Shown in pieces: positions 9,146-63,058 of a stretch of DNA of 64,000 nucleotides. Under the pieces are notes generated by a model. That model searched no databases, was not told where the DNA came from, and was given only the letters and a program-made list of their open reading frames with translations. A program made the translations under genes and the position numbers. Source of the DNA: Candidatus Methylomirabilis limnetica (GTDB taxonomy: Bacteria > Methylomirabilota > Methylomirabilia > Methylomirabilales > Methylomirabilaceae). Where the stretch lies: assembly GCF_003044035.1 (NCBI RefSeq), contig NZ_NVQC01000023.1, positions 77,301 to 141,300 of the forward strand, in the 5' to 3' direction. Each line of letters begins with the position of its first letter. The first letter of the stretch is position 1.

Positions 9146-9216
9146 GTAACTACTCAGGTGTTTAGGCTGTAGGCTGAAGGCTGTTAGCCGCTGCGCATAG
9201 ACCGAATCAAGGCGCC
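9146..9216. repeat. MITE-like element, truncated copy (left TIR plus part of subtype-B core)
   Basis: gtaactactcaggtgtttaggctgtaggctgaaggctgttag followed by gcgcatagaccgaatcaaggcgc, matching the 37337 and 36024 copies. Confidence 0.6.
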
Positions 9217-10662: not shown

Positions 10663-11970
10663 TTAGATGTACTTTTTCGCTGCCCGTTGTTTCCATATCA
10701 TCGGGAGGAGTAGGTTCAGGACGTCATCGACAGTGACGATCCCTCTGAGCTCCCCCCCCTCATCCACCACCGGCACGGCCATTAGATTGTACCTGGTGAA
10801 GGTCTCGGTGACCTCGCGCAGGCCGGTCTCCGGCCGAACACTGATGGTTTGCCGCTCCATGATCTCATCAAGCCGCTGGCTCTGGTCGGCCAGGATCAGC
10901 TCCCGAAGGCTCAGTACCCCTACCAGCCGATCCAGGTCGTCGGTCACGTAGATGTAGTAGATAGTCTCGGCCTCGGCCCCCTCCACAGATCGGAGCCGAC
11001 CAATCACGTCGGCCACTAGGAAGTCTGGCCGCAGAGCAAACGCCTCTGTGGTCATGAGCCCACCGGCGGTATCTTCCTCGTGCGTGAGCAGCTCAACCAC
11101 ATCCTGGGCACCATCTTCCTCCATCGTATCGAGGAGCTCCTGCGCCTTCGCCTCCGGCAGGTCGCTCAAGATGTCGGCCGCCTCATCAGGCTCCATGCGC
11201 TCCAGGATATCGGCGGCCTGCTCACTCTCCATCATCTGGACCATCGAGGCTTGAACCTCCGGCTCCGTCTCGGTCAGCGTCTCGGCGGCGGTCTCTTCGT
11301 CTAAGGACTCCAACACCCCTGCTCGCTCGCTCGGACTGAGTTCCTCGATGATGTCGGCGATGTCAGCCGGATGCAGCTTCGCCAGTTTGGCATAGGTTGC
11401 GCGTCGCTTGGTCTTGGTCAGCTCAGTCTCTACCGGCTCGACAACATCCCAGGAGATCGTCTCACGTTCCAGGTGGGTCTTGAACAGGCTCGCGATCTGC
11501 TCAGCCATTGCCTCGGAGCCGAGATGCCTGAGTAGGCCACGCAGACCTGCCTCGACCGCCACAAGCTGCAGCCGCCCTTCTACCTCCTGGAATTCAAGAT
11601 CGTTGACCCGGATCACCTTGCAGCGCTTGGTATCCACCACCTTATGGTCCAGGAGGCTCTGCGCCAGCTCCATCTCCTCAGGCCGCAACGGAACAGGCTG
11701 AAGCGCCTTAGCCGCTTGAGACAGATGAATCGCCGCCGGCCCCCGCTCAATACGCGCCACAGCCTCCCACGGCAAAATCAGCTCTTCCTTCTCGGATGTC
11801 AGGATCGCGAGCTTGGTCACCGGGGGCAAGGCCCCCAACGGTAAGAGGATCAGGTCCTTAAGGTGACCCACAAGCTGCCCATCGGTATCGAGTACCGGAC
11901 AGCGACGCAACGCGGAGAAGAGGAGAGGCATACTCTCCGCCGGCATTTGACCCTCTACCTCCCCCTTCAT
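10663..11970 (-). CDS. MgtE N-terminal domain + tandem CBS-domain protein with no membrane pore
   Basis: Acidic MgtE_N helical region (EELSPSERAGVLESLDEETAAE...) followed by two CBS motifs. Ends at ...MIWKQRAAKKYI with no TM segments. 25 bp upstream of the NRAMP gene. Confidence 0.7.
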   Translation of the reverse strand: MKGEVEGQMPAESMPLLFSALRRCPVLDTDGQLVGHLKDLILLPLGALPPVTKLAILTSEKEELILPWEAVARIERGPAAIHLSQAAKALQPVPLRPEEMELAQSLLDHKVVDTKRCKVIRVNDLEFQEVEGRLQLVAVEAGLRGLLRHLGSEAMAEQIASLFKTHLERETISWDVVEPVETELTKTKRRATYAKLAKLHPADIADIIEELSPSERAGVLESLDEETAAETLTETEPEVQASMVQMMESEQAADILERMEPDEAADILSDLPEAKAQELLDTMEEDGAQDVVELLTHEEDTAGGLMTTEAFALRPDFLVADVIGRLRSVEGAEAETIYYIYVTDDLDRLVGVLSLRELILADQSQRLDEIMERQTISVRPETGLREVTETFTRYNLMAVPVVDEGGELRGIVTVDDVLNLLLPMIWKQRAAKKYI

Positions 11971-12625: not shown

Positions 12626-12762
12626 GTAACTACTCAGGTAGATAGGCTGAAGGCTGAAGGCTTTTAGGGGTGAGTAATGCGCGATCAAAGAAAACTCAGA
12701 AAAGGTCTTGAATGGCTCGATTCGTGCCTTGCGAGATAATTTATAACCTTCAGCTCAGTTAC
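12626..12762. repeat. MITE-like element (subtype A core, right TIR degenerate)
   Basis: gtaactactcaggtagataggctgaaggctgaaggc ... ggtcttgaatggctcgattcgtgccttgcgagataatttataaccttcagc. Confidence 0.7.
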
Positions 12763-12880: not shown

Positions 12881-12944
12881 AAAAACATACCACATTTTAT
12901 TTAATGATTTCCCGCCTATCACTGAATGGTTACTTCTTTACGTT

Positions 12945-13072
12945 CATTTTCGTTGAGGGTCGATACCCTGCGGCTTGCCGCGAGTTCGTCATACCGGCGG
13001 AAGCCGGTATCCAACAGGGCCGACTGGATTCCCGCATATCCAGTACGGGGCAGGCTTGTCAAGCACGGAATG
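12945..13072. repeat. REP-2 structured repeat (multi-hairpin, reverse orientation)
   Basis: ggtcgataccctgcggcttgccgcgagttcgtcataccggcggaagccggtatcc...gtcaagcacggaatgac. Contains the 8-bp stem ataccggc-GGAA-gccggtat. Confidence 0.65.
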
Positions 13073-13168
13073 ACAATCAAAAGAAAAGGACATCTGGCGC
13101 ACTATCCTCGTTTGTCCGTAGGCAGGAACGCAGCACACCTGCCGCATAGGAGGCGCAAGTTCTGTAGC

Positions 13169-17107: not shown

Positions 17108-17165
17108 AGAAACCAGCTTTCAGCTATCAGCAGCCAGCAATGCACGACTCCGCAGCAAGCTGCGG

Positions 17166-17346
17166 GGTTTCATCTTCTGTTCTGGCCCGTCATTCCGTAC
17201 TTGACACGCCTGCCCCGTACTTGATACGGCCTGCCCCGTACTCGATACGGGGGGGGAATCCAGCCGGGCCCTCTGGATACCGGCTTCTGCCGGTATGACG
17301 AACTTACGGCAAGCCGCAGGGAATGAACCCCCAGTGGATTCAAGAA
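17166..17346. repeat. REP-2 structured repeat (forward orientation, with duplicated gcctgccccgtacttgatacgg module)
   Basis: gtcattccgtacttgacacg...ggataccggcttctgccggtatgacgaact...gggaatgaacccccagtggattcaag. Confidence 0.65.
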
Positions 17347-17381
17347 TCAGCTATTGGAGGCTGACAGCTAATCGCTGCTTT

Positions 17382-19494: not shown

Positions 19495-19724
19495 GCGATA
19501 CCCTCATTGCTCAAACATTGATTGGTATATCTCTTAATTGCGATTTTTTATAGTATACCCCCAGACGACGCTGTCAAGAAAAATGTTATCTACAAGTTAA
19601 ATATGCTACCCCATAAGGTATTAACCAACATCCATGCCATGAGCAAAATCAGCCCAATCAAATTAGGACACTACCGAGGGCCTGAAGTAGGCCGCCGCGA
19701 AGCCTGATGTCCCGACGCGAAAGC

Positions 19725-19925
19725 TACATCCGTTCGGGAGCGGAGACGCCAAGCAACCCAAGCGTGTTGGCCATGACCACGCGAAGGGCGGCCACAAGCG
19801 CCAGGCGTGCATGCGCGAGATTCCTATCGGCGGAGATAATCCGATGGCGGGTATATGGTAGCCGTGAAACTGCGCGGCGAGGTCGTGCAGATAGATGGTG
19901 AGCCTGTGCGGCTCCAGCACCTCTG
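19725..19925 (-). pseudogene. displaced and decayed copy of the argS 3' end (last ~66 codons), frameshifted
   Basis: About 88% nucleotide identity to 28041-28240 (the true argS 3' end), starting exactly at the stop codon. A 2-bp insertion near 19853-19856 breaks the frame. Confidence 0.8.
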
Positions 19926-28039: not shown

Positions 28040-29713
28040 CTACATCCGTTCGGGAGCGGAGACGCCCAGCAACCCAAGCGCGTTGGCCATGACCACGCGA
28101 AGGGCAGCCACCAGCGCCAGGCGAGCGCGCGTGAGATTCCTATCGGCGGAGATAATGCGATGGCGGGTATAGTAGCCATGAAACTGCGCGGCGAGGTCGT
28201 GCAGATAGGTGGTGAGTCTGTGCGGCTCCAGCGCCTGCGCCGCCCCGATCACCAGTTCCGGGTAGAGCGCCAGTTGCTTAATCAACCCGATCTCTTCCTG
28301 CAGATCGAGCGACTCGAGGGCATCCTCTGGGGTGGGAGCTGGAAACTGAGCCTTTGCCGCCTGCCGGAGAATGCTGCACAGGCGTGTGTGCGCGTACTGC
28401 ACGTAGTAGACGGGGTTTTCCTCGGACGCCGACTTGGCGAGCTCCAGGTCAAAGTCCAAATGGCTGTCGCACCGTCTGGTGAGAAAGATGAAGCGCGCCG
28501 CATCACGGCCCACCTCCTCAACCAGCTCGTCCATCATCACGAACTGCCCGGATCGCTTGGACATCCGGACCTGCTCGGTCCCTCGCATTAAACGGACGAG
28601 CTGCACGATCAGGACCCTGAACGCCTCGGGAGGATGGTCGAGCGCCTGCATTGCAGCCCGCATCCGCGCAATGTAGCCATGGTGGTCCGGGCCCCAGAGA
28701 TCGATCACCTGGTCAAACCCGCGAGCGAACTTGTCCTGGTGATAGGCGATGTCCGGAAGAAAATAAGTGATATCGCCGTCGCCCTTCACAAGGACCCGGT
28801 CTTTATCATCGCCAAAGGCGGTCGAGCGAAACCACAGGGCGCTCTCATGCTCATAGAGGAAGCCGCGCTCCCGCAGCGCCTCCATCACCCGCTCTGGCTC
28901 GCGGCGTTCCCGCAGGGCCCGCTCGCTAAACCACCCATCAAAGGTGACCCCGTATGCCTCAAGCGAGGCCCGCTGCCAGCGGAGGATCCGCTCGACCGCA
29001 AAGCGACCCAGTCGATCGCGGCGCTCCGGCTCCGGCGCTAAGAGCGCCTCGGGCCCGTGCTGCTCCAGAAACTCGCGGGCCAGATCGATCAGATAGTCAC
29101 CCGGATAGGCCTCCTCTGGCATGGGGCAGTCCTCACCCAGGCGCTGACGGCACCGCACCTCCATCGCCAACGCGAGGTTGCGGAATTGGTTCCCCGCATC
29201 GTTCACATAGTACTCGCGGTACGGCCGATGCCCGATGGCCTCTAAGAGCCTAGCGATGGCATCACCGATCGCCGCGGCCCTGGCACTGACCACGACGAGC
29301 GGGCCGGTCGGATTCGCGCTGACAAACTCCACGAGTACGCGGCGCCCGCCGCCGACATCAGCCCTGCCGTACGTCGATCCAGCTCGGAGGATCTCCTGAA
29401 CGAGATGACGCCAGAACGGCCTGGCGATAAAGAAGTTCAGATAGCCGGCGCCCGCCACCTCGACGCGATCGACCAGATCGGAAGGAAATGTTGCTGAGGC
29501 GGCAATCTGGAGCGCGATCTCGCGAGGCTTCTGCCTCAGCGCTTTCGCCAGGCCGAAGGCCAGCGTGGTAGAGAGATCGCCGAAGGCCTGGTCGCTCGGA
29601 TATTCCCACGTAAGCTGTGCGGGAGCATCCTGCGCAAGCCCGCTCTCTAAACCAGCCTGCTTGATGGCGGTCAGAAGCGATTTCGTCAGGTTTGTTTTGA
29701 GAGCACTAATCAT
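28040..29713 (-). CDS. argS: arginine--tRNA ligase
   Basis: 557 aa, class I aaRS with KMSKS-like MSKRSG. Anticodon-binding C-terminus ends in ...APERM. Confidence 0.9.
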   Translation of the reverse strand: MISALKTNLTKSLLTAIKQAGLESGLAQDAPAQLTWEYPSDQAFGDLSTTLAFGLAKALRQKPREIALQIAASATFPSDLVDRVEVAGAGYLNFFIARPFWRHLVQEILRAGSTYGRADVGGGRRVLVEFVSANPTGPLVVVSARAAAIGDAIARLLEAIGHRPYREYYVNDAGNQFRNLALAMEVRCRQRLGEDCPMPEEAYPGDYLIDLAREFLEQHGPEALLAPEPERRDRLGRFAVERILRWQRASLEAYGVTFDGWFSERALRERREPERVMEALRERGFLYEHESALWFRSTAFGDDKDRVLVKGDGDITYFLPDIAYHQDKFARGFDQVIDLWGPDHHGYIARMRAAMQALDHPPEAFRVLIVQLVRLMRGTEQVRMSKRSGQFVMMDELVEEVGRDAARFIFLTRRCDSHLDFDLELAKSASEENPVYYVQYAHTRLCSILRQAAKAQFPAPTPEDALESLDLQEEIGLIKQLALYPELVIGAAQALEPHRLTTYLHDLAAQFHGYYTRHRIISADRNLTRARLALVAALRVVMANALGLLGVSAPERM

Positions 29714-33132: not shown

Positions 33133-33272
33133 GTAACTACAGGTAGATAGACTGAAGGCTGAAGGCTGTTAGTGGTAGGAACCGAGAAGGTCTTGAACGG
33201 CTCGATTCGTGTCTTGCGAGATATTTATAACCTTCAGTCTTCAGCCTTCAGCCTAAACACCTGGGTAGTTAC
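33133..33272. repeat. MITE-like element, complete (subtype A)
   Basis: Left TIR gtaactacaggtagatagactgaaggctgaaggct. Right TIR agccttcagcctaaacacctgggtagttac. Confidence 0.75.
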
Positions 33273-33293
33273 ACTGATACCAGTGATTGCCAT

Positions 33294-34187
33294 TTGCCTC
33301 TGGGACCTGATTTTCTTATAATACGATCTATGAGTCAGGTAGATGACCTTCGAAGCGTCAGCCGCCAGGTAACCAAAAAGAGCGGCTCGAACTTCTACTA
33401 CTCCTTTCTCTTCCTCCCAAAGCCAAAACGCGAGGCGATGTACGCCGTCTACGCCTTCTGTCGGTTGAGCGACGATCTGGTGGATGAGTCAAAGGCTGGA
33501 GGCGATCCCTCGGCCGCGCTGACCCGATGGAGAAAAGCGCTCGATACCTACTTTCAGGACGGCGTTGGGCCCCCTGTCATCATGGCTGTTGGCCAAGCCG
33601 CGTGCCGGTTCAATATCCCAAAGGTCTACTTCGAGGAGCTGCTCAATGGCATGGAGATGGATCTCACGCGCGCCAGATATGCGACGCTTGACGAACTCTA
33701 CCCGTACTGCTACCGCGTGGCGTCGATTGTAGGCCTCATCTGCATCGAAATCTTTGGCTACACCAATCCGCAGACAAAGACGTACGCCGAACAACTGGGC
33801 ATTGCCTTTCAACTGACCAACATTATTCGGGATGTGGGTGTTGATGCACAACGAGGACGGATCTACCTTCCGCAGGATGAGTTGAAGCAGTTTGGATATT
33901 CTGAAGAAGAGCTGCTGGCCGGACGATACAACCGCGCCTTCATGGAGCTGATGCAGTTTCAGTGTGAGCGAGCCCGAGGCTTTTTTCACGCAGCCTCAGC
34001 CGCGTTGTCGGCAGAGGATGAGCGGTCGCTGCTGGCCGCAGAGATCATGCGGGCTATTTACTACCGCCTGTTGCTCAGAATCGAAGCGCAACAGTACGAT
34101 GTCTTCCGCGGGGATATCACTCTTGGTAAACCCCGGAAGCTTTTGTTGGCCGGCGGTCTGTGGCTCCGATCGATACTGCGCTTTTAG
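33294..34187 (+). CDS. squalene/phytoene synthase family enzyme (HpnC/HpnD-like)
   Basis: YYSFLFLP...AVYAFCRLSDDLVDE first Asp-rich motif and NIIRDVGVD second motif. Confidence 0.8.
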   Translation: MPLGPDFLIIRSMSQVDDLRSVSRQVTKKSGSNFYYSFLFLPKPKREAMYAVYAFCRLSDDLVDESKAGGDPSAALTRWRKALDTYFQDGVGPPVIMAVGQAACRFNIPKVYFEELLNGMEMDLTRARYATLDELYPYCYRVASIVGLICIEIFGYTNPQTKTYAEQLGIAFQLTNIIRDVGVDAQRGRIYLPQDELKQFGYSEEELLAGRYNRAFMELMQFQCERARGFFHAASAALSAEDERSLLAAEIMRAIYYRLLLRIEAQQYDVFRGDITLGKPRKLLLAGGLWLRSILRF

Positions 34188-34204
34188 TGTAATGTCCCCT
34201 GAGT

Positions 34205-34346
34205 CTCTTTGCTTTGATTGTCATTCCGGGCTTGATAAGCCTGCCCCGTACTTGATACGGGGGGAATCCAGTCGGGCCCTATGGATACCGGCTTCCGCCG
34301 GTATGACGAACTCGCGGCAAGCCTCGGGGAATGAACCCCCAGTGGA
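34205..34346. repeat. REP-2 structured repeat fused to a MITE remnant
   Basis: gtcattccgggcttgataagcc...ggataccggcttccgccggtatgacgaactcgcggcaagcc...gaacccccagtggattcaaga. Confidence 0.65.
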
Positions 34347-34433
34347 TTCAAGATCTTTCTGAAGTTTTGCGTGATCACGCATGACTTACACCTAACAGCC
34401 TTCAGTCTTCAGCCTATCTACCCGAGTAGTTAC
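34347..34433. repeat. MITE-like element, internal region plus right TIR only (left half replaced by REP-2)
   Basis: tctttctgaagttttgcgtgatcacgcatgacttacacctaacagccttcagtcttcagcctatctacccgagtagttac. Confidence 0.7.
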
Positions 34434-34473
34434 GCTGAAACATCTACACGGCAGAGACGGGGTCACGTCCTGA

Positions 34474-35070
34474 TTAGCGACCCTTACCGTGGTGGTCAAT
34501 CCCAATGTGGGCTTTGATGAACTTGACGATCCGCGCCTCGTCAAACTCATCAAACTTGTCGATCCTGCCCCATGCCGTCAGCGCAATCTTTCGATCCAGT
34601 CCGGTGTATGGCGCAAGGATAACGTGATCGTACCGCTCGGCAATCGCGGTGAGCTGTTTGATCAGGTCAGGGCAATCCTGACAGAAGTAGTTGATCGCCA
34701 CGCCGCCATCTTCGAGATTGTGAACCTGCATCTCCTTCGGGACCGGTTCGCTGTGAACGCCCCATTTTGCCACCCCGGCAGCATGAGGTCCAGAGGTTGG
34801 TGGATCGCTATTGTACGGCGGATGAGGGGTACCGAGGGCAACGTGGGGGCTCGGCAGGGTCGCAACGGAGGTCCAGCTCACCTTCTCCGTCATCTTGCCG
34901 TAACCCCAATAGGCGGCAACCATCAGAACGACCGCAATGGCGGAATAGAGCCCGATCTGCCCCATAACCCCCTGACGTCGCTTCGCTCTTTCCGCCTCAG
35001 CACGTTCCTGCTTTGCCTTTTGGTTAGCCTCTTTCTTGATTTGCGATTTCGCGATCTGCGGCTTTGCCAT
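34474..35070 (-). CDS. DUF3105-like membrane-anchored protein
   Basis: Lys-rich N-terminus, one TM, then HNLEDGGVAINY, which resembles the DUF3105 HNLEHG core. Confidence 0.5.
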   Translation of the reverse strand: MAKPQIAKSQIKKEANQKAKQERAEAERAKRRQGVMGQIGLYSAIAVVLMVAAYWGYGKMTEKVSWTSVATLPSPHVALGTPHPPYNSDPPTSGPHAAGVAKWGVHSEPVPKEMQVHNLEDGGVAINYFCQDCPDLIKQLTAIAERYDHVILAPYTGLDRKIALTAWGRIDKFDEFDEARIVKFIKAHIGIDHHGKGR

Positions 35071-36023: not shown

Positions 36024-36189
36024 GTAACTACTCAGGTAGATAGACTGTAGGCTTTTAGACTGTAGGAACGCACCATGCGAGACCATACCAAGCCGAGAGC
36101 GCGTGAACTGGCCGACGAAGCGCCCTGATTCGGTCCGTGCGCAACTACTAACAGCCTTCAGCCTACAGCCTAAACACCTGAGTAGTTGC
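36024..36189. repeat. MITE-like element, complete (subtype B core, encodes MRDHTKPRARELADEAP on +)
   Basis: gtaactactcaggtagatagactgtaggc ... gcctacagcctaaacacctgagtagttgc. Core is the reverse complement of the 37337 copy. Confidence 0.75.
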
Positions 36190-36199
36190 CTCATCCCCA

Positions 36200-37336: not shown

Positions 37337-37504
37337 GTAACTACTCAGGTGTTTAGGCTGTAGGCTGAAGGCTGTTAGTCTTTGCGCATGGACCGAATCA
37401 AGGCGCACTTCGTCGGCCAGTTCAAACGCTCTGAGCTTGGCATGGTCTCGCATGGCGCGTTCCTACAGTCTAAAAGCCTACAGTCTATCTACCTGAGTAG
37501 TTAC
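37337..37504. repeat. MITE-like element, complete (subtype B, inverted relative to 36024)
   Basis: gtaactactcaggtgtttaggctgtaggctgaaggctgttag...ctacagtctatctacctgagtagttac. Confidence 0.75.
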
Positions 37505-39701: not shown

Positions 39702-39878
39702 GTAACTACTCAGCAGTAACTACTCAGGTGTTTAGGCTGAAGGCTGAAGACTGAAGGCTCTGCATTATCTCGCAAGGCACGAATCGAGCCATTCAAGATC
39801 TTTTCGGAGTTTTGTATGATCACGCATGACTTACTTCTAAAAGCCTTCAGCCTTCAGCCTATCTACCTGAGTAGTTAC
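39702..39878. repeat. MITE-like element, complete (subtype A), with 14-bp tandem duplication of the left tip
   Basis: agtaactactcagc agtaactactcaggtgtttaggctgaaggctgaagactgaaggc...ccttcagccttcagcctatctacctgagtagttac. Confidence 0.75.
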
Positions 39879-40040
39879 GTTCAGCAGTCAGCCGTCAGCT
39901 TTCAGCAACAACAAGGAAAGAACGAAAATGGCCGACCATTTCCAAATCAAAAGCTTGGACCTCTGTGGTTAGTTTGCCTCATCTTGCTGACGGCTGAGCG
40001 CTGACCGCTGAATGCTATTTTCTGAGGAGCAGAACACGCT

Positions 40041-40701: not shown

Positions 40702-41385
40702 ATGTTTGTGCTGATCGCCGGCGGAGGCCGAACTGCTTCACACCTGGCCACCCTCTTGCTGGCTCGCCAGCACGAGGTCCGACTTATCGAGCACCGACGG
40801 GACGTCCTCTCACGTCTTCACCACGAGTTGCCCACCGAGGTGATCTACGAAGGCAACCCCACCGATCCACAAGTATTGGAACGGGCCGATATCCGTCGGG
40901 CGAAGGTGTTAGCTGCGTGCACCTCTTCCGATGAAGATAATCTCTCGCTCTGCTTCTTTGCCCGCACCCTCTATCGGGTGCCCCGTACTATCGGCTGGAT
41001 CAACAATCCCCGCACCGCTTGGCTCTTCGACGAGAAGTTCCACGTAGACGTGGCCCTCAACCAGGCGCAGATCTTTAGCAGTCTGATCGAAGAAGAGATG
41101 TCGCTCGGCGATATGATGACACTGCTCAAATTGCGGAGGGGCCGCTATTCCCTGGTAGAGGAGAAGATCCCCCCGGGCGCCCGCGCTCTGGGTATCGCTA
41201 TCAAGGACCTGCGCTTGCCGCCGGATTCGGTGATCGCCACCATCATCCGGGACGGGCAGCTCCTCATTCCGCGCGGGGATACCCGATTTGAAGTTGGGGA
41301 TGAGGTGCTCGCGATTGCAGATCATGAAGGCACCGAAGAGCTCGCCGGCCTGTTCGGCCGACCGGATGCGCAACAGAAGACGTAA
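40702..41385 (+). CDS. trkA: second TrkA/KtrA-type RCK protein
   Basis: MFVLIAGGGRTASHLA Rossmann. Tandem with the first copy, 1-nt spacing. Confidence 0.8.
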   Translation: MFVLIAGGGRTASHLATLLLARQHEVRLIEHRRDVLSRLHHELPTEVIYEGNPTDPQVLERADIRRAKVLAACTSSDEDNLSLCFFARTLYRVPRTIGWINNPRTAWLFDEKFHVDVALNQAQIFSSLIEEEMSLGDMMTLLKLRRGRYSLVEEKIPPGARALGIAIKDLRLPPDSVIATIIRDGQLLIPRGDTRFEVGDEVLAIADHEGTEELAGLFGRPDAQQKT

Positions 41386-41435
41386 CTACTTAGGCGTTTA
41401 GACTGAAGGCTGAAGACTGAAGGTTATACATTCAA
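41383..41435. repeat. MITE left TIR only (opens a 1.1-kb low-GC insert)
   Basis: gtaactacttaggcgtttagactgaaggctgaagactgaaggtt, then unrelated low-GC sequence. Confidence 0.65.
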
Positions 41436-42094: not shown

Positions 42095-42261
42095 GGCGTC
42101 ACCTCACCCCCGCTTTCACTAACCATCGCCCACGCTTAACCTGCGTCACCCCTCGTGCCTGCCGCGCCTGTAGCTGCTTGAGTGATAGCGCCATAGCATG
42201 AGCCTCACATAAGCTCGCAAGACGCGAATCAAGTCAATGAACTACCCCGCAGCAAGCTGCT

Positions 42262-42385
42262 TCGGTATCGTCTTCTGTTCTGGCCCGTCATTCCGTGCTT
42301 GACACGGAATCCAGCCGGGCCCTCTGGATACCGGCTTCCACCGGTATGACGAACTCGCGGCAAGCCGCGGGGAATGAACCCCAGT
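42262..42385. repeat. REP-2 structured repeat fused to a MITE remnant
   Basis: cttctgttctggcccgtcattccgtgcttgacacggaatccagccgggccctctggataccggcttccaccggtatgacgaactcgcggcaagccgcgggg. Confidence 0.65.
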
Positions 42386-42477
42386 AGATTCAAGACCTTC
42401 TCGGTAACTCTTCTTTCGGAAACCCTGTGATTACCCCTAACAGCCTTCAGCCTTCAGCCTATCTACCTTGTAGTTAA
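42386..42477. repeat. MITE internal remnant plus right TIR (closes the low-GC insert)
   Basis: ...ccctgtgattacccctaacagccttcagccttcagcctatctaccttgtagttaac. Confidence 0.65.
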
Positions 42478-54436: not shown

Positions 54437-54594
54437 CCCAAGCCCTCCTTTGCGCCGTCCAACGTTGACCTAACGGGCGTACAAAAGCCGAGGGAAGCGT
54501 CGCTATTGCACGTCCGTGTTGAGCGAATTGTTAAGCTGCTTGCCGTTGAAGTAGGAAACTCGGAACTCGTCCACGATTCTCTCAAACGCGCTCC

Positions 54595-54879
54595 CTACTC
54601 GACGTCGCGGTAGGAATTCTCACTCCCCCAGACATTGGGAACTTTTGGGGCAAAAGGGTCGTTCCACCACTCCTTGCCGTCTACGAAGAATTTGTACTCA
54701 TATCGACCAGGCTCTAAGGATAGTGAGATGATCCAGACCGTCTGGAGGCCGTCGTAGACCATCGGGTGATCCGACACATTCCAGCCGTTGAAATCCCCTG
54801 CCAGGGTCACCGACTGGGCTCCAGGGCAGTGGAAGCTGAAGCTTACGACCTTTCCCATCGCGAATCCTCCCAGCCCCAC
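54595..54879 (-). CDS. stand-alone CBM48 / AMPK-beta-type glycogen-binding mini-protein (copy 1)
   Basis: 94 aa. VTLAGDFNGWN...PGRYEYKFFVDGKEWWNDP is the CBM48 glycogen-binding signature. Confidence 0.55.
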   Translation of the reverse strand: MGLGGFAMGKVVSFSFHCPGAQSVTLAGDFNGWNVSDHPMVYDGLQTVWIISLSLEPGRYEYKFFVDGKEWWNDPFAPKVPNVWGSENSYRDVE

Positions 54880-54962
54880 TTCTCGTATAAGCCGTCTGAA
54901 GTGTCTATCCGGATTCCATCGGTCATGATCCGGCCGACCAGGGCGGCGATGAAATATATCGC

Positions 54963-55976: not shown

Positions 55977-56507
55977 ACCGCTTCGACTTCTTTAGCTTTC
56001 TGAGCTTGATCGTATAGTTCCATTCCCCGTGGAACTTATGGGGGTTCGATGTTGAGAGCGGCCAGTTCCTCATTCGAGACCTTGATCTTGAGGGAATACT
56101 CCCGTGTGTCCAGCTTGGCTTTGACCTTCAATCCTGTCTTGGGCATGGTCGCACCGATCTGTTGTACCACAACTTCATGGCTCATCAACGGACGCTCTCT
56201 CCAATTCATGCTGATGTAGGAAAATAACCGATATTCGATCTTGTTCCACCTTCTTGGTGTCGACCGAGATGATGGGGTCGCCCGCCTTCAAGAAATGATG
56301 AACGTGACGACTGAGATGCTGAAATTGCCGGTCGTGATCTGGATAGGCCGCGCCTTCCGCCAGCGTTTTCATGATGCTCTGGTCTCTCAGGGCGATCGGC
56401 TTGCGATCGCCGCCCGTCGCTCGGACCCCGCACCCTGCCGCTACCTGGCGGCTCATCTCCTCGCGCTCAGCGAAGGTGAGTCTCTTGTAAGTTGTCATCC
56501 AGCACAA
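55977..56507 (-). pseudogene. decayed ISAzo13-family (DDE_Tnp_ISAZ013) transposase remnant, internally deleted and frameshifted
   Basis: Minus strand encodes ...PIISVDTKK... and C-terminal ...LNIEPP*(frameshift) HKFHGEWNYTI. The C-run at about 56023-56027 causes the frameshift. The whole remnant is under 180 aa versus about 400 aa expected. Confidence 0.5.
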
Positions 56508-56855
56508 CTCCTTTCTCTTGAGCTATCCCAGGATACAGGTGTTGCGCTAGAAACTTGAACTCAGGTTAAAAAAAAGCCGCCTCCGCCTCTCGCGGATGGC
56601 GGCCCGACCACCCTCTGTCCTCCGAAAATAGCTAGACGCTATCTCCGGACCCCTCTGGAATAACCTGTCACAACGTTATGTCCTAAGAAGTCATTTTGAT
56701 GATCGGCGACAACCTCACAACACCCTACGAAGAGACCATTCGATGCGAACATGCGACCTCAGCAGGCGTCAGCTTCAGATGTGTCGACGCGTTACACTAA
56801 CGCTCACTATAGCCCTAAATCGAGTGCAGTCAAGGTCAATCAGGCTCTGTGCCCC

Positions 56856-57140
56856 CTACTCGATATCGAGGTATGAATTCTCACTCCCCCAGACATTGGG
56901 AACTTTTGGTGCGGAGGGGTCGTTCCACCACACCCGACCATCCACGAAGAACTTGTACTCGTATCGGCCAGGCTCTAACGGAAGCGCGACGGTCCATACC
57001 TCCTGGATGCCGTCATAGACCATCGGGTGGGCCGACACATTCCAGCCGTTGAAATCCCCCGCCAGGATGACCGACCCGGCTCCAGGACAGCGAAAGCTGA
57101 AGCTGGCAATCCTTCCCATAGCCAATCCCTCTGTCATCAA
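56856..57140 (-). CDS. stand-alone CBM48 glycogen-binding mini-protein (copy 2, paralogue of 54595-54879)
   Basis: 94 aa, about 80% identical to copy 1 (VILAGDFNGWN...PGRYEYKFFVDGRVWWNDP). Confidence 0.55.
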   Translation of the reverse strand: MMTEGLAMGRIASFSFRCPGAGSVILAGDFNGWNVSAHPMVYDGIQEVWTVALPLEPGRYEYKFFVDGRVWWNDPSAPKVPNVWGSENSYLDIE

Positions 57141-57570
57141 TGCTCATGTAGCGCGCCCAAGGTTTCTGCGCGGAGCTAATTCATGCTGAGCTCATCAGTG
57201 ATGAAATTACACAATGGATCGCAAATAGGCAAGTTCTTTATGCCTGGAACGTACCGCGCGATTCCCTGGAGAGCTCGCAGGTCTTAACGGCTACTCTGGT
57301 TAATCTGAAACGTCTGAACTGCACAGCATGGGAGGTGGGATGGCGAAGGCATACTGCAGCGGATGTGGGATCACACCGGTAGATCCTTCAGCGTCGCTAC
57401 CAGCGCCCGTGGTGACTGGTCGACTCCGGCCAGCACCGTAATCTGGGCGCACGACACGTACTGCTTGGGAATTCAACTGGACCTCGGTCCCTCTGGTGAG
57501 GGCTCCAGTCGGTTAATCCTTTCGGTTACAGAACTGCCTCCTCGACAGAAAGGTGTGGTAGAATACAACC

Positions 57571-58247: not shown

Positions 58248-58401
58248 GTAACTGCTCAGGTAGATAGACTGAAGGCTGAAGGCTTTTAGGGGTAAGCCGC
58301 GTGATTATTTAAAACCCCGAGAAGGTCTTGAGGGGCTCGATTCGTGTCTTATGAGATAATTTAGAGCCTTCAGCCTTCAGCCTAAACACCTGAGTAGTTA
58401 C
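58248..58401. repeat. MITE-like element, complete (subtype A, same orientation as 12626)
   Basis: gtaactgctcaggtagatagactgaaggctgaaggc...gccttcagccttcagcctaaacacctgagtagttac. Confidence 0.75.
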
Positions 58402-58516
58402 AATCCGAGATATCATCTGAGAAAAGGCGCTGGAGCGTTTATACGCTCGTGTAAGGGACGATGCGCCACACTGGAGGCTCTTTCACGTGCTACACAGGCC
58501 CAAGGGAAAATCCCTC

Positions 58517-60373: not shown

Positions 60374-60504
60374 GTACCCTCCTCCTTGTCAGCCGATCGA
60401 ACCACGGCAACATCCCCGCTTCATATTCCCCGCCGGATGCCGCCTCTAAGCCAAATGGTCTTCATCCCCGCGAAGCTTGTCCCCGCATGCTTGAAACGGG
60501 GAGC

Positions 60505-60575
60505 GGCAATCCAGAGAGGCGCTGGATTCCCCCGTATCAAGTACGTGGCAGGCTTGTCAAGCCCGGAATGACACC
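60505..60575. repeat. REP-2 structured repeat, partial copy
   Basis: ggattcccccgtatcaagtacgtggcaggcttgtcaagcccggaatgac. Confidence 0.5.
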
Positions 60576-60729
60576 CAAGCACAGAGATACAAAGTTGTCA
60601 TTGCGAACGAGGTGAAGCAATCTCGCAGATTGCCACGCACCCTGCTGGTGCTCGCAATGACAGAAAGAAGCTAGTGATTGTGCAGTCTATCGCTGTTCTT
60701 GGGTAACAAACTGTCTGCTGTTCGCCGCA

Positions 60730-62055
60730 TCACGACACCGTTTGATTCTTCGCGAAGAGGATATAGGACCTTGCTCGGCCCTCACGGATGGCCTGCTCGA
60801 CCAGGGCCCGAGGCTCCTTCGCCTTGACTCTTGGCAGGATCGCCTCGAAGAACTGGATGTAGAAATCGTCTGGCACCACGACTACGGAGGCACGCATTGT
60901 GAGCCCCGCCCGGTCGATGGTTCTCGCGTAGCGAACAGTACGGCTTTTACCGGACGCAATCCTGGTGTCAAAGAGTTCTTGTGTCAGATCAAGCGTGACC
61001 TCTCGCCCGATCCGTTCCTCTTGCACACTCTCATTCACCTGCTTACCATCCGTATCTACTAACTCCCATCGGACTATGATCTTCGGCGTAACGTAGGTTG
61101 GGACATGATGCCCAACCCCGGTATTAGCCAGCGTGATTTCAGCCTGAACTTGCTCGCCGACCTGGTAGCGCTCCTTATTTACCGAAAGACGGACGGATAC
61201 GCCTTGCTTGACCATCTCAGGATCATGGATCCCCCGCCATAGATGCCGCCGCTCCGGCATATGGCAGCCCTGACAGGTCATCCCTCCCAGCGCATACGGC
61301 CCCTCTTTCCATTCATTATAGGTGTTTTCGAGCAGCTTACCGTTCAGGGCAGACCCACTCGGCTCGAACTGGTGGCACCCTTTGCAGAACTCGGATCGCT
61401 CAAAGGCCGCCGTCCTGATGGCGCCGGCGTGGGGGAGCTGTGCTACCGGAGCGGAATTCTCAATCGAGCCGTCCCGCTTTGGCGGCCCGAAGCGCTGGTG
61501 CTTCCGAACATGGCACCCGGCACAGGTCAGACCCTTTTGCTGCAGCGAGGCCGAAAAGGCGCGGTTCGTTTTGAACTTCAACGCGGTGCTGCCCCAGACC
61601 CCTGACGCGCTCGGCAATGGCGTCGCAACGGCGCGGCGCTTCTTGAACAGAGAGGGGGAACCACCGCCTTTCTTCACGACCTTCTCCTGCTGCTCGGTGA
61701 GAGGAGCATGACAACTGTAGCAGAGGATCGCCATATTGGGATCACCATGGATAAACTCCATCGTCTGGCCTATCACGCCCGGCCCCATACTTTTACTGTG
61801 GAGGCTGCTGCTCCAATCCTCGTACTGAGTTCGATGGCAGACGGCGCAACTTTCCGGGTCAAGAGATGCCTCTATCGACGAGAAATGGGCGGGCGGCTTA
61901 CCTTGAGGCGGGATGGGCGTCTGCCAATGGCGCGTGAGAAACTCAAGCTGCGCGTCGTCATCGGCAGCGGGTGGCGGGTCTTTCATCGCCCATGCGCCAA
62001 CCGAAAGCCCCAGGCCTGCGATCACGACAGCGGTATACAGAAGAAGCCGTTTCAT
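60730..62055 (-). CDS. pentaheme c-type cytochrome (secreted)
   Basis: Five CxxCH: CAVCH, CYSCH, CAGCH, CKGCH, CQGCH. Signal peptide MKRLLLYTAVVIAGLGLSVGAWA. Start set at 62055 because the upstream in-frame 77 codons are the translated REP-2 repeat. Confidence 0.75.
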   Translation of the reverse strand: MKRLLLYTAVVIAGLGLSVGAWAMKDPPPAADDDAQLEFLTRHWQTPIPPQGKPPAHFSSIEASLDPESCAVCHRTQYEDWSSSLHSKSMGPGVIGQTMEFIHGDPNMAILCYSCHAPLTEQQEKVVKKGGGSPSLFKKRRAVATPLPSASGVWGSTALKFKTNRAFSASLQQKGLTCAGCHVRKHQRFGPPKRDGSIENSAPVAQLPHAGAIRTAAFERSEFCKGCHQFEPSGSALNGKLLENTYNEWKEGPYALGGMTCQGCHMPERRHLWRGIHDPEMVKQGVSVRLSVNKERYQVGEQVQAEITLANTGVGHHVPTYVTPKIIVRWELVDTDGKQVNESVQEERIGREVTLDLTQELFDTRIASGKSRTVRYARTIDRAGLTMRASVVVVPDDFYIQFFEAILPRVKAKEPRALVEQAIREGRARSYILFAKNQTVS

Positions 62056-62065
62056 TCTCGTCGAG

Positions 62066-62215
62066 GGTCGATACCCTGCGGCTTGCCGCGAGTTCGTCAT
62101 ACCGGCGGAAGCCGGTATCCAGAGGGCCCGACTGGATTCCGTGTCAAGCACGGAATGACGGGCCAGTACAGAAGTCGATACCCCGTAGCTTGCCGCGGGG
62201 TAGTTCATCGATGGC
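62066..62215. repeat. REP-2 structured repeat (reverse orientation, plus an extra partial unit)
   Basis: ggtcgataccctgcggcttgccgcgagttcgtcataccggcggaagccggtatcc...gtcaagcacggaatgacgggccagtacagaag. Confidence 0.65.
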
Positions 62216-62893: not shown

Positions 62894-62903
62894 AGTTCAT
62901 AAG

Positions 62904-63058
62904 TAACTACTCAGGTGTTTAGGCTGAAGACTGAAGGTTCTAAATTATCTCGCAAGGCCCGAATCGAGCCATTCAAGATCTTTTCTGAGTTTTCTTTGAT
63001 CACGCATGACTTACCCCTAAAAGCCTTCAGCCTTCAGCCTATCTACCTGAGTAGTTAC
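62904..63058. repeat. MITE-like element, complete (subtype A)
   Basis: gtaactactcaggtgtttaggctgaagactgaagg...ccttcagccttcagcctatctacctgagtagttac. Confidence 0.75.

Follow-up and report, generated by a model that had tools for sequence, protein, structure and literature searches.

Introduction

CGTC-tagged repetitive extragenic palindromes (REPs) carry a CGTC or TGTC tag, an 8–9-bp stem starting AT, a 4–5-nt loop and a CCA tail, occur mainly as dimers with the tags outside (head-to-head, HH), and fall into families CGTC-1 to CGTC-4, which include Neisseria dRS3 and Rickettsia RPE-4 and RPE-6 (Di Nocera, De Gregorio & Rocco 2013, PMC3733652). They were reported without a dedicated transposase or an associated tyrosine transposase; the CGTC-1 dimers of H. 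neapolitanus sit within a palindromic carrier, and many REPs have been argued to act as RNA hairpins (PMC3733652). The Neisseria NTS, CGTCATTCCCGCGMAVGCGGGAATCYRG, encompasses dRS3 (Chenal et al. 2025, PMC11893778). SsnA, a GIY-YIG nuclease of 94 amino acids (aa), binds and cuts NTS only as single-stranded DNA (ssDNA), not as RNA or duplex, at a site ~3 nt upstream of the CGTCAT head; ssn genes of different phyla have related SRM motifs beside them, and in N. meningitidis NTS and SsnA modulate transformation (PMC11893778). Here we describe REP-2, an intergenic DNA repeat of ~150–200 bp in a 64,000-nt stretch of Candidatus Methylomirabilis limnetica contig NZ_NVQC01000023.1 (the window). REP-2 is a hairpin repeat of the CGTC-tagged REP and NTS/SRM kind, set in an NC10-type frame, with a defined target and nested in MITEs (miniature inverted-repeat transposable elements); we argue that it is probably a non-coding, non-autonomous mobile element acting at the DNA level, not an RNA gene.

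Results and discussion

REP-2 is built on a dimer of CGTC-tagged hairpins

At the centre of REP-2 lies a 69-nt core of two inverted hairpin units, CGTCAT-(hairpin)-ATCCAG-loop-CTGGAT-(hairpin)-ATGACG, written out as CGTCAT/TCCGTG-cttga-CACGGA/ATCCAG-9 nt-CTGGAT/ACCGGC-ttcc-GCCGGT/ATGACG. The first unit is CGTC-ATTCCGTG-cttga-CACGGAAT-CCAG, and the second, inverted and read on the other strand, is CGTC-ATACCGGC-ggaa-GCCGGTAT-CCAG. By its sequence, the core is a heterodimer in which two CGTC-tagged REP hairpins stand head to head with their tags outside. Both units begin with CGTCAT or TGTCAT in the five full copies of the window and in 58 distinct related cores; the 8-bp stems, ATTCCGTG/CACGGAAT around a CTTGA loop and ATACCGGC/GCCGGTAT around a GGAA loop, both start AT; both units finish ...AT-CCA(G); and every core has the HH arrangement CGTCAT...CCAG-9 nt-CTGG...ATGACG.

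In full NC10 elements the core is framed by two identical hairpin modules, M1 and M2 (CCCCGCGGC-AA-GCCGCGGGG), whose hairpins stand ~8 and ~21 nt from the element ends. M1 reads ATGAAC-TA-CCCCGCGGCAAGCYGCGGGG-TATCG-TCTTCTGTTCTGGCC, and M2 reads T-CGCGGCAAGCCGCGGGG followed by either a type-A end, AATGAACCCCCAGTGGA, or a type-B end, TATCGACCCTCAACGAAAATGAA. No M1 or M2 hairpin without a core was found. The 34205 and 12945 copies form a subfamily without M1, with the left edge ...TTTGATT/GTCAT. Extra 22-nt modules (GCCTGCCCCGTACTTGATACGG) number 0 (42240 and 62050 copies), 1 (12945, 34205 and 60470) or 2 (17150); they are tandem duplications of the hairpin of the first unit in which CCGTG/CACGG has become CCGTA/TACGG, so that CCGTA-cttga-TACGG stands in the module and CCGTG-cttga-CACGG in copies without it, and the first unit is enlarged wherever they occur. 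A sequence-only reading of the window had already drawn attention to this variable module number and to three perfect hairpins, all of which are present as it described them on the strand it read.

Chance does not account for these copies, the expectation being zero. The hairpin pattern ATACCGGC-N4-GCCGGTAT occurs five times in the window (0.02 expected), as do the 22-nt module and a 49-nt core pattern (0 expected for each). A covariance model, which the sequence-only reading had proposed, finds exactly five full cores, at 12984-13075(-), 17227-17303(+), 34219-34311(+), 42286-42354(+) and 62092-62160(-), and a weak sixth match at 60475-60573(-). Its matches on the opposite strand score 30–40 bits lower, and the orientation of REP-2 is therefore well defined. 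The six copies originally counted thus correspond to five full cores and the sixth match; the last, taken for a partial copy at 60505, belongs to a divergent subfamily and is not truncated. Its first unit has one extra module, and its second is a nested-hairpin variant, CTGGATTGCCGC-TCCCCG...CGGGGA-...GGGGATGA, resembling a unit close to ssn in one of the related loci discussed below (L069). Full elements measure 152–199 nt (17140-17338, 42237-42388, 62051-62208) rather than the ~130 nt first estimated. Within the interval 34205-34433 that had been assigned to the repeat, only 34219-34346 is REP-2 (here without M1), the remaining 87 nt (34347-34433) being MITE.

Like the described CGTC REPs, REP-2 is intergenic, mostly between convergent or co-directional genes, and heterodimeric, and some CGTC dimers likewise lie within larger palindromic carriers. 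It differs in its short dimer spacer, of just 9 nt, and in the pairing of the two tails, which yields a four-way junction that is closed; also, the first-unit hairpin is tandemly duplicated 0–2 times and the dimer is always M1/M2-framed. PMC3733652 documents neither insertion events nor a target site, both of which REP-2 has, and the name Methylomirabilis has zero text matches there, whereas REP-2 has its host in NC10. In their flanks, CGTCATTCC...GGAATCCAG, the units agree fully with the NTS consensus CGTCATTCCCGCGMAVGCGGGAATCYRG (18 of 28 nt in total), including the binding-critical C after the palindrome, and NTSvar is resembled by the second unit (CGTCATACC...GGTATC). Further in, stem and loop are different, so that the published SRM expression does not match, and the REP-2 boundaries lie ~45 nt outside the expected SsnA cut position.

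Empty and filled sites define the ends and the target

REP-2 runs from 5'-ATGAAC to GTGGA-3' and ends immediately 5' of TTCA (usually A^TTCAA), with no target duplication; its two ends are not inverted repeats of each other. Identical boundaries come from MITEs with and without the element and from three orthologous empty/filled pairs: window 17140-17338 against L148 (CAGCA^TTCAG), L086 against L071 (AGGTC^TTCAC) and L089 against L074 (CCCGG^TTCAG), where L-numbers denote related loci. TTCA follows 67 of 71 distinct type-A ends, in 60 of those as TTCAA, and the sequence further downstream is otherwise unrelated. No duplication was seen at four sites, comprising empty/filled pairs and MITE sites. 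These empty and filled sites demonstrate that REP-2 is mobile. By structure REP-2 is no classical MITE, having neither terminal inverted repeats (TIRs) nor a target-site duplication.

The MITE in which REP-2 is lodged at several loci belongs to an abundant family of ~160 bp with TIRs GTAACTACTCAGGT... that contain runs of the heptad GGCTGAA, at least two internal subfamilies, and a centre, A^TTCAAGA, that is the REP-2 target. Complete MITEs with both TIRs and with REP-2 at one central position occur in L159, L162, L072, L097, L077 and L059. The filled junction reads GAGCCA(ATGAAC...GTAGA)TTCAAGATC, and empty MITEs of the window (39716-39878, 62903-63058) read GAGCCATTCAAGATC. Since TTCAAGA in the centre of the GGCTGAAGG MITE is the REP-2 target, the fixed junction between the two repeats is explained by REP-2 having inserted, nested, at A^TTCAAGA. 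Past ...GA/TTCAAGA, the copies at 34205 and 42240 continue directly as MITE sequence, comprising its right half and right TIR. At 34205 the left MITE arm is absent, as it is in the orthologue L141, and at 42210-42236 only a 27-nt remnant survives, where the orthologue L059 holds a complete MITE. The REP-2/MITE joints of the window are nested insertions followed by loss of the left arm, of which nothing is left at 34205 and a remnant at 42210-42236. The sequence-only reading was right that insertion into the MITE is site-specific and mistaken that REP-2 replaces the left half of it, for the element interrupts the centre. It had also listed the 17166 copy with the two that run into a MITE; there ...GTGGA/TTCAAGA is followed by native intergenic sequence that is also present in the empty orthologue L148. 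The site of this insertion (17140-17338) is a hairpin of one of the CAGC-rich heptad runs (CAGCTAT CAGCAGC CAGC... / GCTGACAGCTAATCGCTGC) that form intergenic hairpins at 17110-17139 with 17343-17380, at 39879-39905 and at L148 ~11620-11720.

The joints might instead be recombination chimeras, formed through short homology (ATTCAAGA and a CTCGC..AAG stretch common to both repeats), with the empty sites being deletions. The MITE centre CTCGCAAGGCACGAATCGAGCCATTCAAGA is indeed loosely like the REP-2 3' module CTCGCGGCAAGCCGCGGGGAATGAAC...GATTCAAGA, both window chimeras lack the left MITE arm, and repeats this dense invite recombination. We consider this very improbable, given that complete two-armed MITEs bear the element at the same nucleotide, that three loci outside any MITE have the same termini and the same TTCA flank, and that TTCA recurs beside otherwise unrelated downstream sequences. 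Furthermore, the 152-nt inserts of three MITEs are 95–96% identical, compared with 71–81% for the MITE arms around them, which is better explained by several later insertions into one and the same site than by one ancestral chimera.

A conserved four-way junction, on DNA or on RNA

Folded as ssDNA, the core forms a perfect four-way junction on either strand, whether the minimum-energy or the centroid structure is taken (z −4.3 to −5.9), in which the CGTCAT heads pair together, the ATCCAG tails pair together and the two unit hairpins complete the junction. Across 39 distinct aligned cores, 97.8% of stem cells are paired. Compensatory changes, the absence of which the sequence-only reading would have taken as refuting its proposal, are present: six pairs change on both sides, all within the two unit hairpins (for example TCCGTG/CACGGA, TCCGGG/CCCGGA and TCCCGCG/CGCGGGA in the first unit; ACCGGC/GCCGGT, TCCCGC/GCGGGA and ACCTGC/GCAGGT in the second). 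Heads and tails are invariant across the alignment, in part by ascertainment. A further complementarity of NC10-type copies, between the 5'-flank sequence GGCCCG, 5 nt upstream of GTCAT, and CGGGCC in the 9-nt spacer loop (e.g. 42281-42286 and 42316-42321), was chosen by the folding program in a 150-nt context; we dropped this pairing, as the variants fit inverted and direct readings equally.

Strong folds and covarying stems would also be expected if REP-2 were, or were in addition, a functional structured RNA, either a small RNA or a 3'-untranslated-region element that stabilises or terminates the upstream transcript, as the sequence-only reading had favoured. Consistent with this, many REPs are argued to be RNA hairpins (PMC3733652), the 34205 copy starts 32 nt past the stop codon of a squalene/phytoene synthase gene, and, as for co-transcribed REPs, 60 convergent or co-directional contexts stand against 11 divergent ones. 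However, the tandem contexts within that count are 18 sense and 21 antisense, i.e. random, with 21 convergent (all from crude gene calls); both strands give the same junction at similar energies; G·T mismatches in stems outnumber A·C by 12 to 5, yet the TGTC tag variant accounts for six of them and without it the ratio is 6 to 5; and no T-run follows any hairpin of the window copies. A scan of the window with Rfam 15 at gathering thresholds matches only an nhaA-I riboswitch elsewhere, and 34150-34480 gives nothing even at E<=10. The element is also present or absent between close strains with precise ends, which is the behaviour of mobile DNA, and its characterised relative is bound as ssDNA, not RNA (PMC11893778). 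Covariation is equally expected of hairpins recognised as ssDNA, as the closest relatives are (PMC11893778), and is therefore not proof of RNA. We conclude that an RNA function is unlikely and that REP-2 is not evidence of a new regulatory RNA, although secondary effects on transcripts, as for other REPs, are possible.

Relatives, carriers and the ssn connection

Relatives were sought with a pattern in which both unit hairpins were left free, using one genome per species. The scan returned 68 genome loci, in bins labelled Ca. Methylomirabilis/NC10, Syntrophobacteraceae, ‘delta proteobacterium’, Thermodesulfobacteriota, Nitrospirae, Planctomycetes (one labelled Kuenenia), Natronospirales and one ‘Patescibacteria’, and a metagenome scan added 110 further NC10-type REP-2 loci. 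No match to the CGTC dimer was found among 2.9 million viral contigs. What recurs across phyla is the dimer. L059 (Methylomirabilis sp. bin48) has flanks 96–99% identical to the window; L003, on a 41%-GC Thermodesulfobacteriota contig, holds the entire M1-core-M2 element at ~80% identity and with compensatory changes. The contigs of L031, L048, L055 (labelled Patescibacteria) and L061 (labelled Kuenenia stuttgartiensis) are 56–60% GC, and the first three bear NC10-type REP-2 including M1 and M2; a GC content of 59% suggests that the ‘Patescibacteria’ bin is mis-binned. In the Planctomycetes-labelled loci L061, L050 and L026, the units fit the NTS consensus and stand in a dimer of REP-2 type.

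A different carrier appears in Syntrophobacteraceae-like and ‘delta’ metagenome-assembled genomes (MAGs; L006, L009, L030, L032, L041, L051), where a 145–172-bp MITE with TIRs GTACAGCGCCACA... and TTA target duplications is centred, in all copies seen, on the CGTC dimer, which in some of them is followed by tandem GGCGGTGRCGAACT units. The same dimer at the centre of such a MITE suggests that it may be the cargo of different carriers. Copies of this MITE without the dimer, which would delimit the dimer itself, were not found.

In two further loci the dimer adjoins ssn itself. The ssn genes of L069 (a Nitrospirae MAG) and L070 (a Deltaproteobacteria MAG) are flanked by single units and REP-2-like dimers, and these dimers, beside GIY-YIG genes (PF01541), score 52–59 bits against a REP-2 core model built without them. 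Downstream of ssn in L069 (6350-6470), the 3' head of the unit (GGAATGACGGGGATGTC) is also repeated in tandem, ~7 times. In the window, a second, unrelated-looking inverted hairpin dimer (GTCATTGCGAG...GCAATC / GATTGC...TCGCAATGAC) at 60596-60665 adjoins the divergent REP-2 copy; its heads likewise lie outside, TGC/GCA replacing TCC/GGA, and similar units (GACATTGCGAAC...GCGATC) adjoin ssn in L070.

Dimers at the centre of unrelated carriers (the NC10 REP-2 frame, the 145-bp TTA-duplicating Syntrophobacteraceae MITE and the arrays beside ssn) raise the question of whether it is instead the host that maintains the CGTC dimer, as a signal for protein binding or genome dynamics (e.g. for Ssn restriction of incoming ssDNA), its copies spreading mainly as hitch-hikers in other mobile elements and not through transposition of the dimer itself. 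The palindromic carrier of CGTC-1 dimers in H. neapolitanus (PMC3733652) and the modulation of transformation by NTS and SsnA in N. meningitidis (PMC11893778) would fit such a role. We nevertheless regard it as quite unlikely: no ssn was found near any NC10 copy, no carrier was seen to lack the dimer and the M hairpins never occur alone. With no carrier seen without the dimer, carrier and cargo are inseparable here.

How REP-2 may move

Single-strand (IS200/IS605-like) transposition has a recognisable signature: TIRs and target duplication are both absent, a fixed tetranucleotide flanks the element, and hairpins lie near the ends. REP-2 shows each of these features. As in IS200/IS605 elements and the gene-less PATEs, its bottom strand, TGAA^TCCAC...GTTCAT, has a fixed tetranucleotide flank and near-identical subterminal hairpins; it differs in that no TnpA or TnpB with REP-2 ends was found and in that its conserved cargo is a CGTC REP dimer. 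REPINs and REP-BIMEs moved with RAYT proteins share with it two inverted REP hairpins as a unit, high copy number, intergenic position and a single-strand hairpin substrate, but the REP-2 tag is CGTC and not GTAG, so that it falls outside the GTAG-tagged class, and no RAYT was found. Mosaic repeats (Neisseria NIMEs, Escherichia coli BIMEs, pneumococcal BOX) are similarly modular and intergenic, with variable numbers of internal modules and alternative ends; their module sequences are unrelated save for the dRS3/NTS-like units, and REP-2 differs in having discrete ends and a defined target.

We propose that REP-2 would be mobilised via ssDNA, its folded hairpins being recognised by a nuclease or transposase that acts in trans and is specific for hairpins. 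Given mobility, the enzyme may be, at rather less than even odds, a GIY-YIG ssDNA nuclease of Ssn type that targets the CGTC units, a candidate that we put forward tentatively; on a somewhat lower estimate it could be an HUH/Y1 enzyme like those of IS200/IS605 and RAYT, with the M1/M2 ends as its substrate, and the remaining probability falls to some other enzyme or to one now extinct. Any influence on transcripts nearby, for instance through 3' hairpins or a donated ATG, would be a by-product.

Several points weigh against this interpretation. Empty/filled pairs do not separate insertion from precise excision, and constraint or gene conversion could also account for inserts that are more alike than the MITE arms. 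Type-B end boundaries are not definable, and the L157/L112 and L098/L143 comparisons are not clean. The REP-2 units match neither the SRM expression, HGTCWYN(0-2)YYVSBRHN(0-5)WNVSBRGN(0-2)RNCYNB, nor the NTS consensus (1 mismatch), failing by one stem/loop position; the two window matches to the SRM expression (0.5 expected) both lie outside REP-2. As the NC10 units do not match it, we claim no membership by the SRM expression, and used anatomy and the covariance model instead. Taxonomic labels are those of MAG bins, some of them doubtful, and phylum counts for REP-2 need caution. Searches for Ssn by tblastn with a consensus probe, by tblastn with 20 real homologues and with a profile of 120 homologues over all six-frame open reading frames (ORFs) found no ssn gene in the window or in loci L001-L068 and L071-L180 (180 related loci plus window, 1.29 Mb), a weak match in L170 being without a Pfam domain. 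The same 1.29 Mb gave no match to Y1 and RAYT probes, although this is a weak test for the gene. No longer element with REP-2 ends was found, nor any left/right end pair more than 330 bp apart in any locus. A cut of the SsnA type would fall ~45 nt inside the REP-2 ends, so Ssn cutting alone does not explain the termini, and the cognate enzyme is something we purely infer. Either a different enzyme may act on the M1/M2 ends, or the NC10 system may differ from Neisseria SsnA.

Setting of the copies and other features of the window

All REP-2 copies of the window are intergenic, among ordinary housekeeping genes (H+-pyrophosphatase, an amidophosphoribosyltransferase-like protein, an alpha/beta hydrolase, a multihaem cytochrome). 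On one side of the interval 34205-34433 is the stop codon of the squalene/phytoene synthase gene (33294-34187, +; PF00494); on the other is a DUF3105 gene in convergent orientation (34474-35070, -). The coordinates of the repeats are collected in Table 1.

Table 1. REP-2 copies and associated MITE sequences in the 64,000-nt window
Feature	Positions	Strand	Remarks
REP-2 copy at 34205, subfamily without 5' M1	34219..34346	+	core 34219-34311; 59.1 bits, E 4.7e-15
3' module M2, type A, of the 34205 copy	34312-34346	+	ends ...CAGTGGA
Extra 22-nt module GCCTGCCCCGTACTTGATACGG	34239..34260	+	first-unit hairpin, duplicated in tandem
Right half of GGCTGAAGG-type MITE	34347..34433	+	TTCA(AGA) target to right TIR ...CCGAGTAGTTAC; repeat families D4, D6, D7
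Complete type-A REP-2 (M1 + core 42286-42354 + M2), MITE-nested	42237..42388	+	5'-ATGAAC...CAGTAGA-3'; 81.1 bits
Remnant of MITE left internal region (TAAGCTCGCAAGACGCGAATCAAGTCA)	42210..42236	+	directly 5' of nested REP-2
MITE right half with degenerate right TIR	42389..42477	+	begins at TTCA target; repeat family D6
Complete type-A REP-2, two extra 22-nt modules	17140..17338	+	inserted before TTCA 17339-17342 within a CAGC-heptad hairpin; no MITE
Complete REP-2, type-B 3' end (...GGGTATCGACCCTCGACGAGAATGAA)	62051..62208	-	87.2 bits
REP-2 without M1, one extra module, type-B 3' end	12943..13075	-	60.2 bits
Divergent REP-2 copy	60475..60573	-	12.7 bits, E 0.17
Empty reference MITE	39716..39878	+	uninterrupted target ...GAGCCA^TTCAAGATC...; second empty copy 62903-63058
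MITE family copies	9146-9215, 12626-12760, 33140-33273, 36033-36190, 37337-37504, 39716-39878, 41382-41432, 58248-58402, 62903-63058		

REP-2 also touches the reading frames around it. The last ATG in the type-B end of the 62050 copy (...GAGAATGAA) is the probable start of the multihaem cytochrome ORF, 60730-62055(-); a longer call for this ORF (to 62286) runs through REP-2, and several type-B copies in other loci likewise end at an ATG with an ORF following. A spurious 132-aa ORF at 33964-34362 (+) is created by REP-2 (...WIPASAGMTNSRQASGNEPPVDSRSF), and translated repeats of this class are a likely source of junk ‘hypothetical proteins’; no literature match was found for repeat-encoded spurious peptide motifs (IPAFAGMT and similar).

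Elsewhere in the window, the nhaA-I (Na+-responsive) riboswitch lies at 56594-56652 (-; 46.3 bits), upstream of a 110-aa ORF (56175-56507, -). Two 300-bp segments (54590-54889 and 56851-57150) are 81% identical, and the 94-aa minus-strand ORFs at 54595-54879 and 56856-57140 are paralogous small genes ~2.3 kb apart. Direct repeats of ~200 bp (19724-19922 and 28040-28236), 93% identical and 8.3 kb apart, overlap the ends of ORFs (19663-19920, 28040-29713).

Implications

In practical terms, REP-2 breaks short-read assemblies (many matches lie at contig ends), makes spurious ORFs and can donate start codons. Few bacterial repeats are as widespread as the CGTC-tagged REPs (dRS3/NTS, RPE and relatives), and the link to Ssn made in 2025 came without evidence on how they spread. 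REP-2 adds NC10 and neighbouring anaerobe lineages to the class, together with a tightly conserved dimer geometry that forms a closed four-way junction, and with nucleotide-exact boundaries and a target, A^TTCAA, that is not duplicated, offering a testable substrate for the question of which enzyme moves CGTC REPs. That REP-2 is the first CGTC-REP-based element with clean empty and filled sites, and a single-strand transposon moved by Ssn and not by an HUH enzyme, with the CGTC dimer and its closed four-way junction as conserved cargo and as the module that Ssn nucleases recognise, seems unlikely to us at present. If Ssn does mobilise CGTC REPs, however, the long-missing enzyme would have been found, and with it a new transposition chemistry for a repeat class that extends across many phyla.

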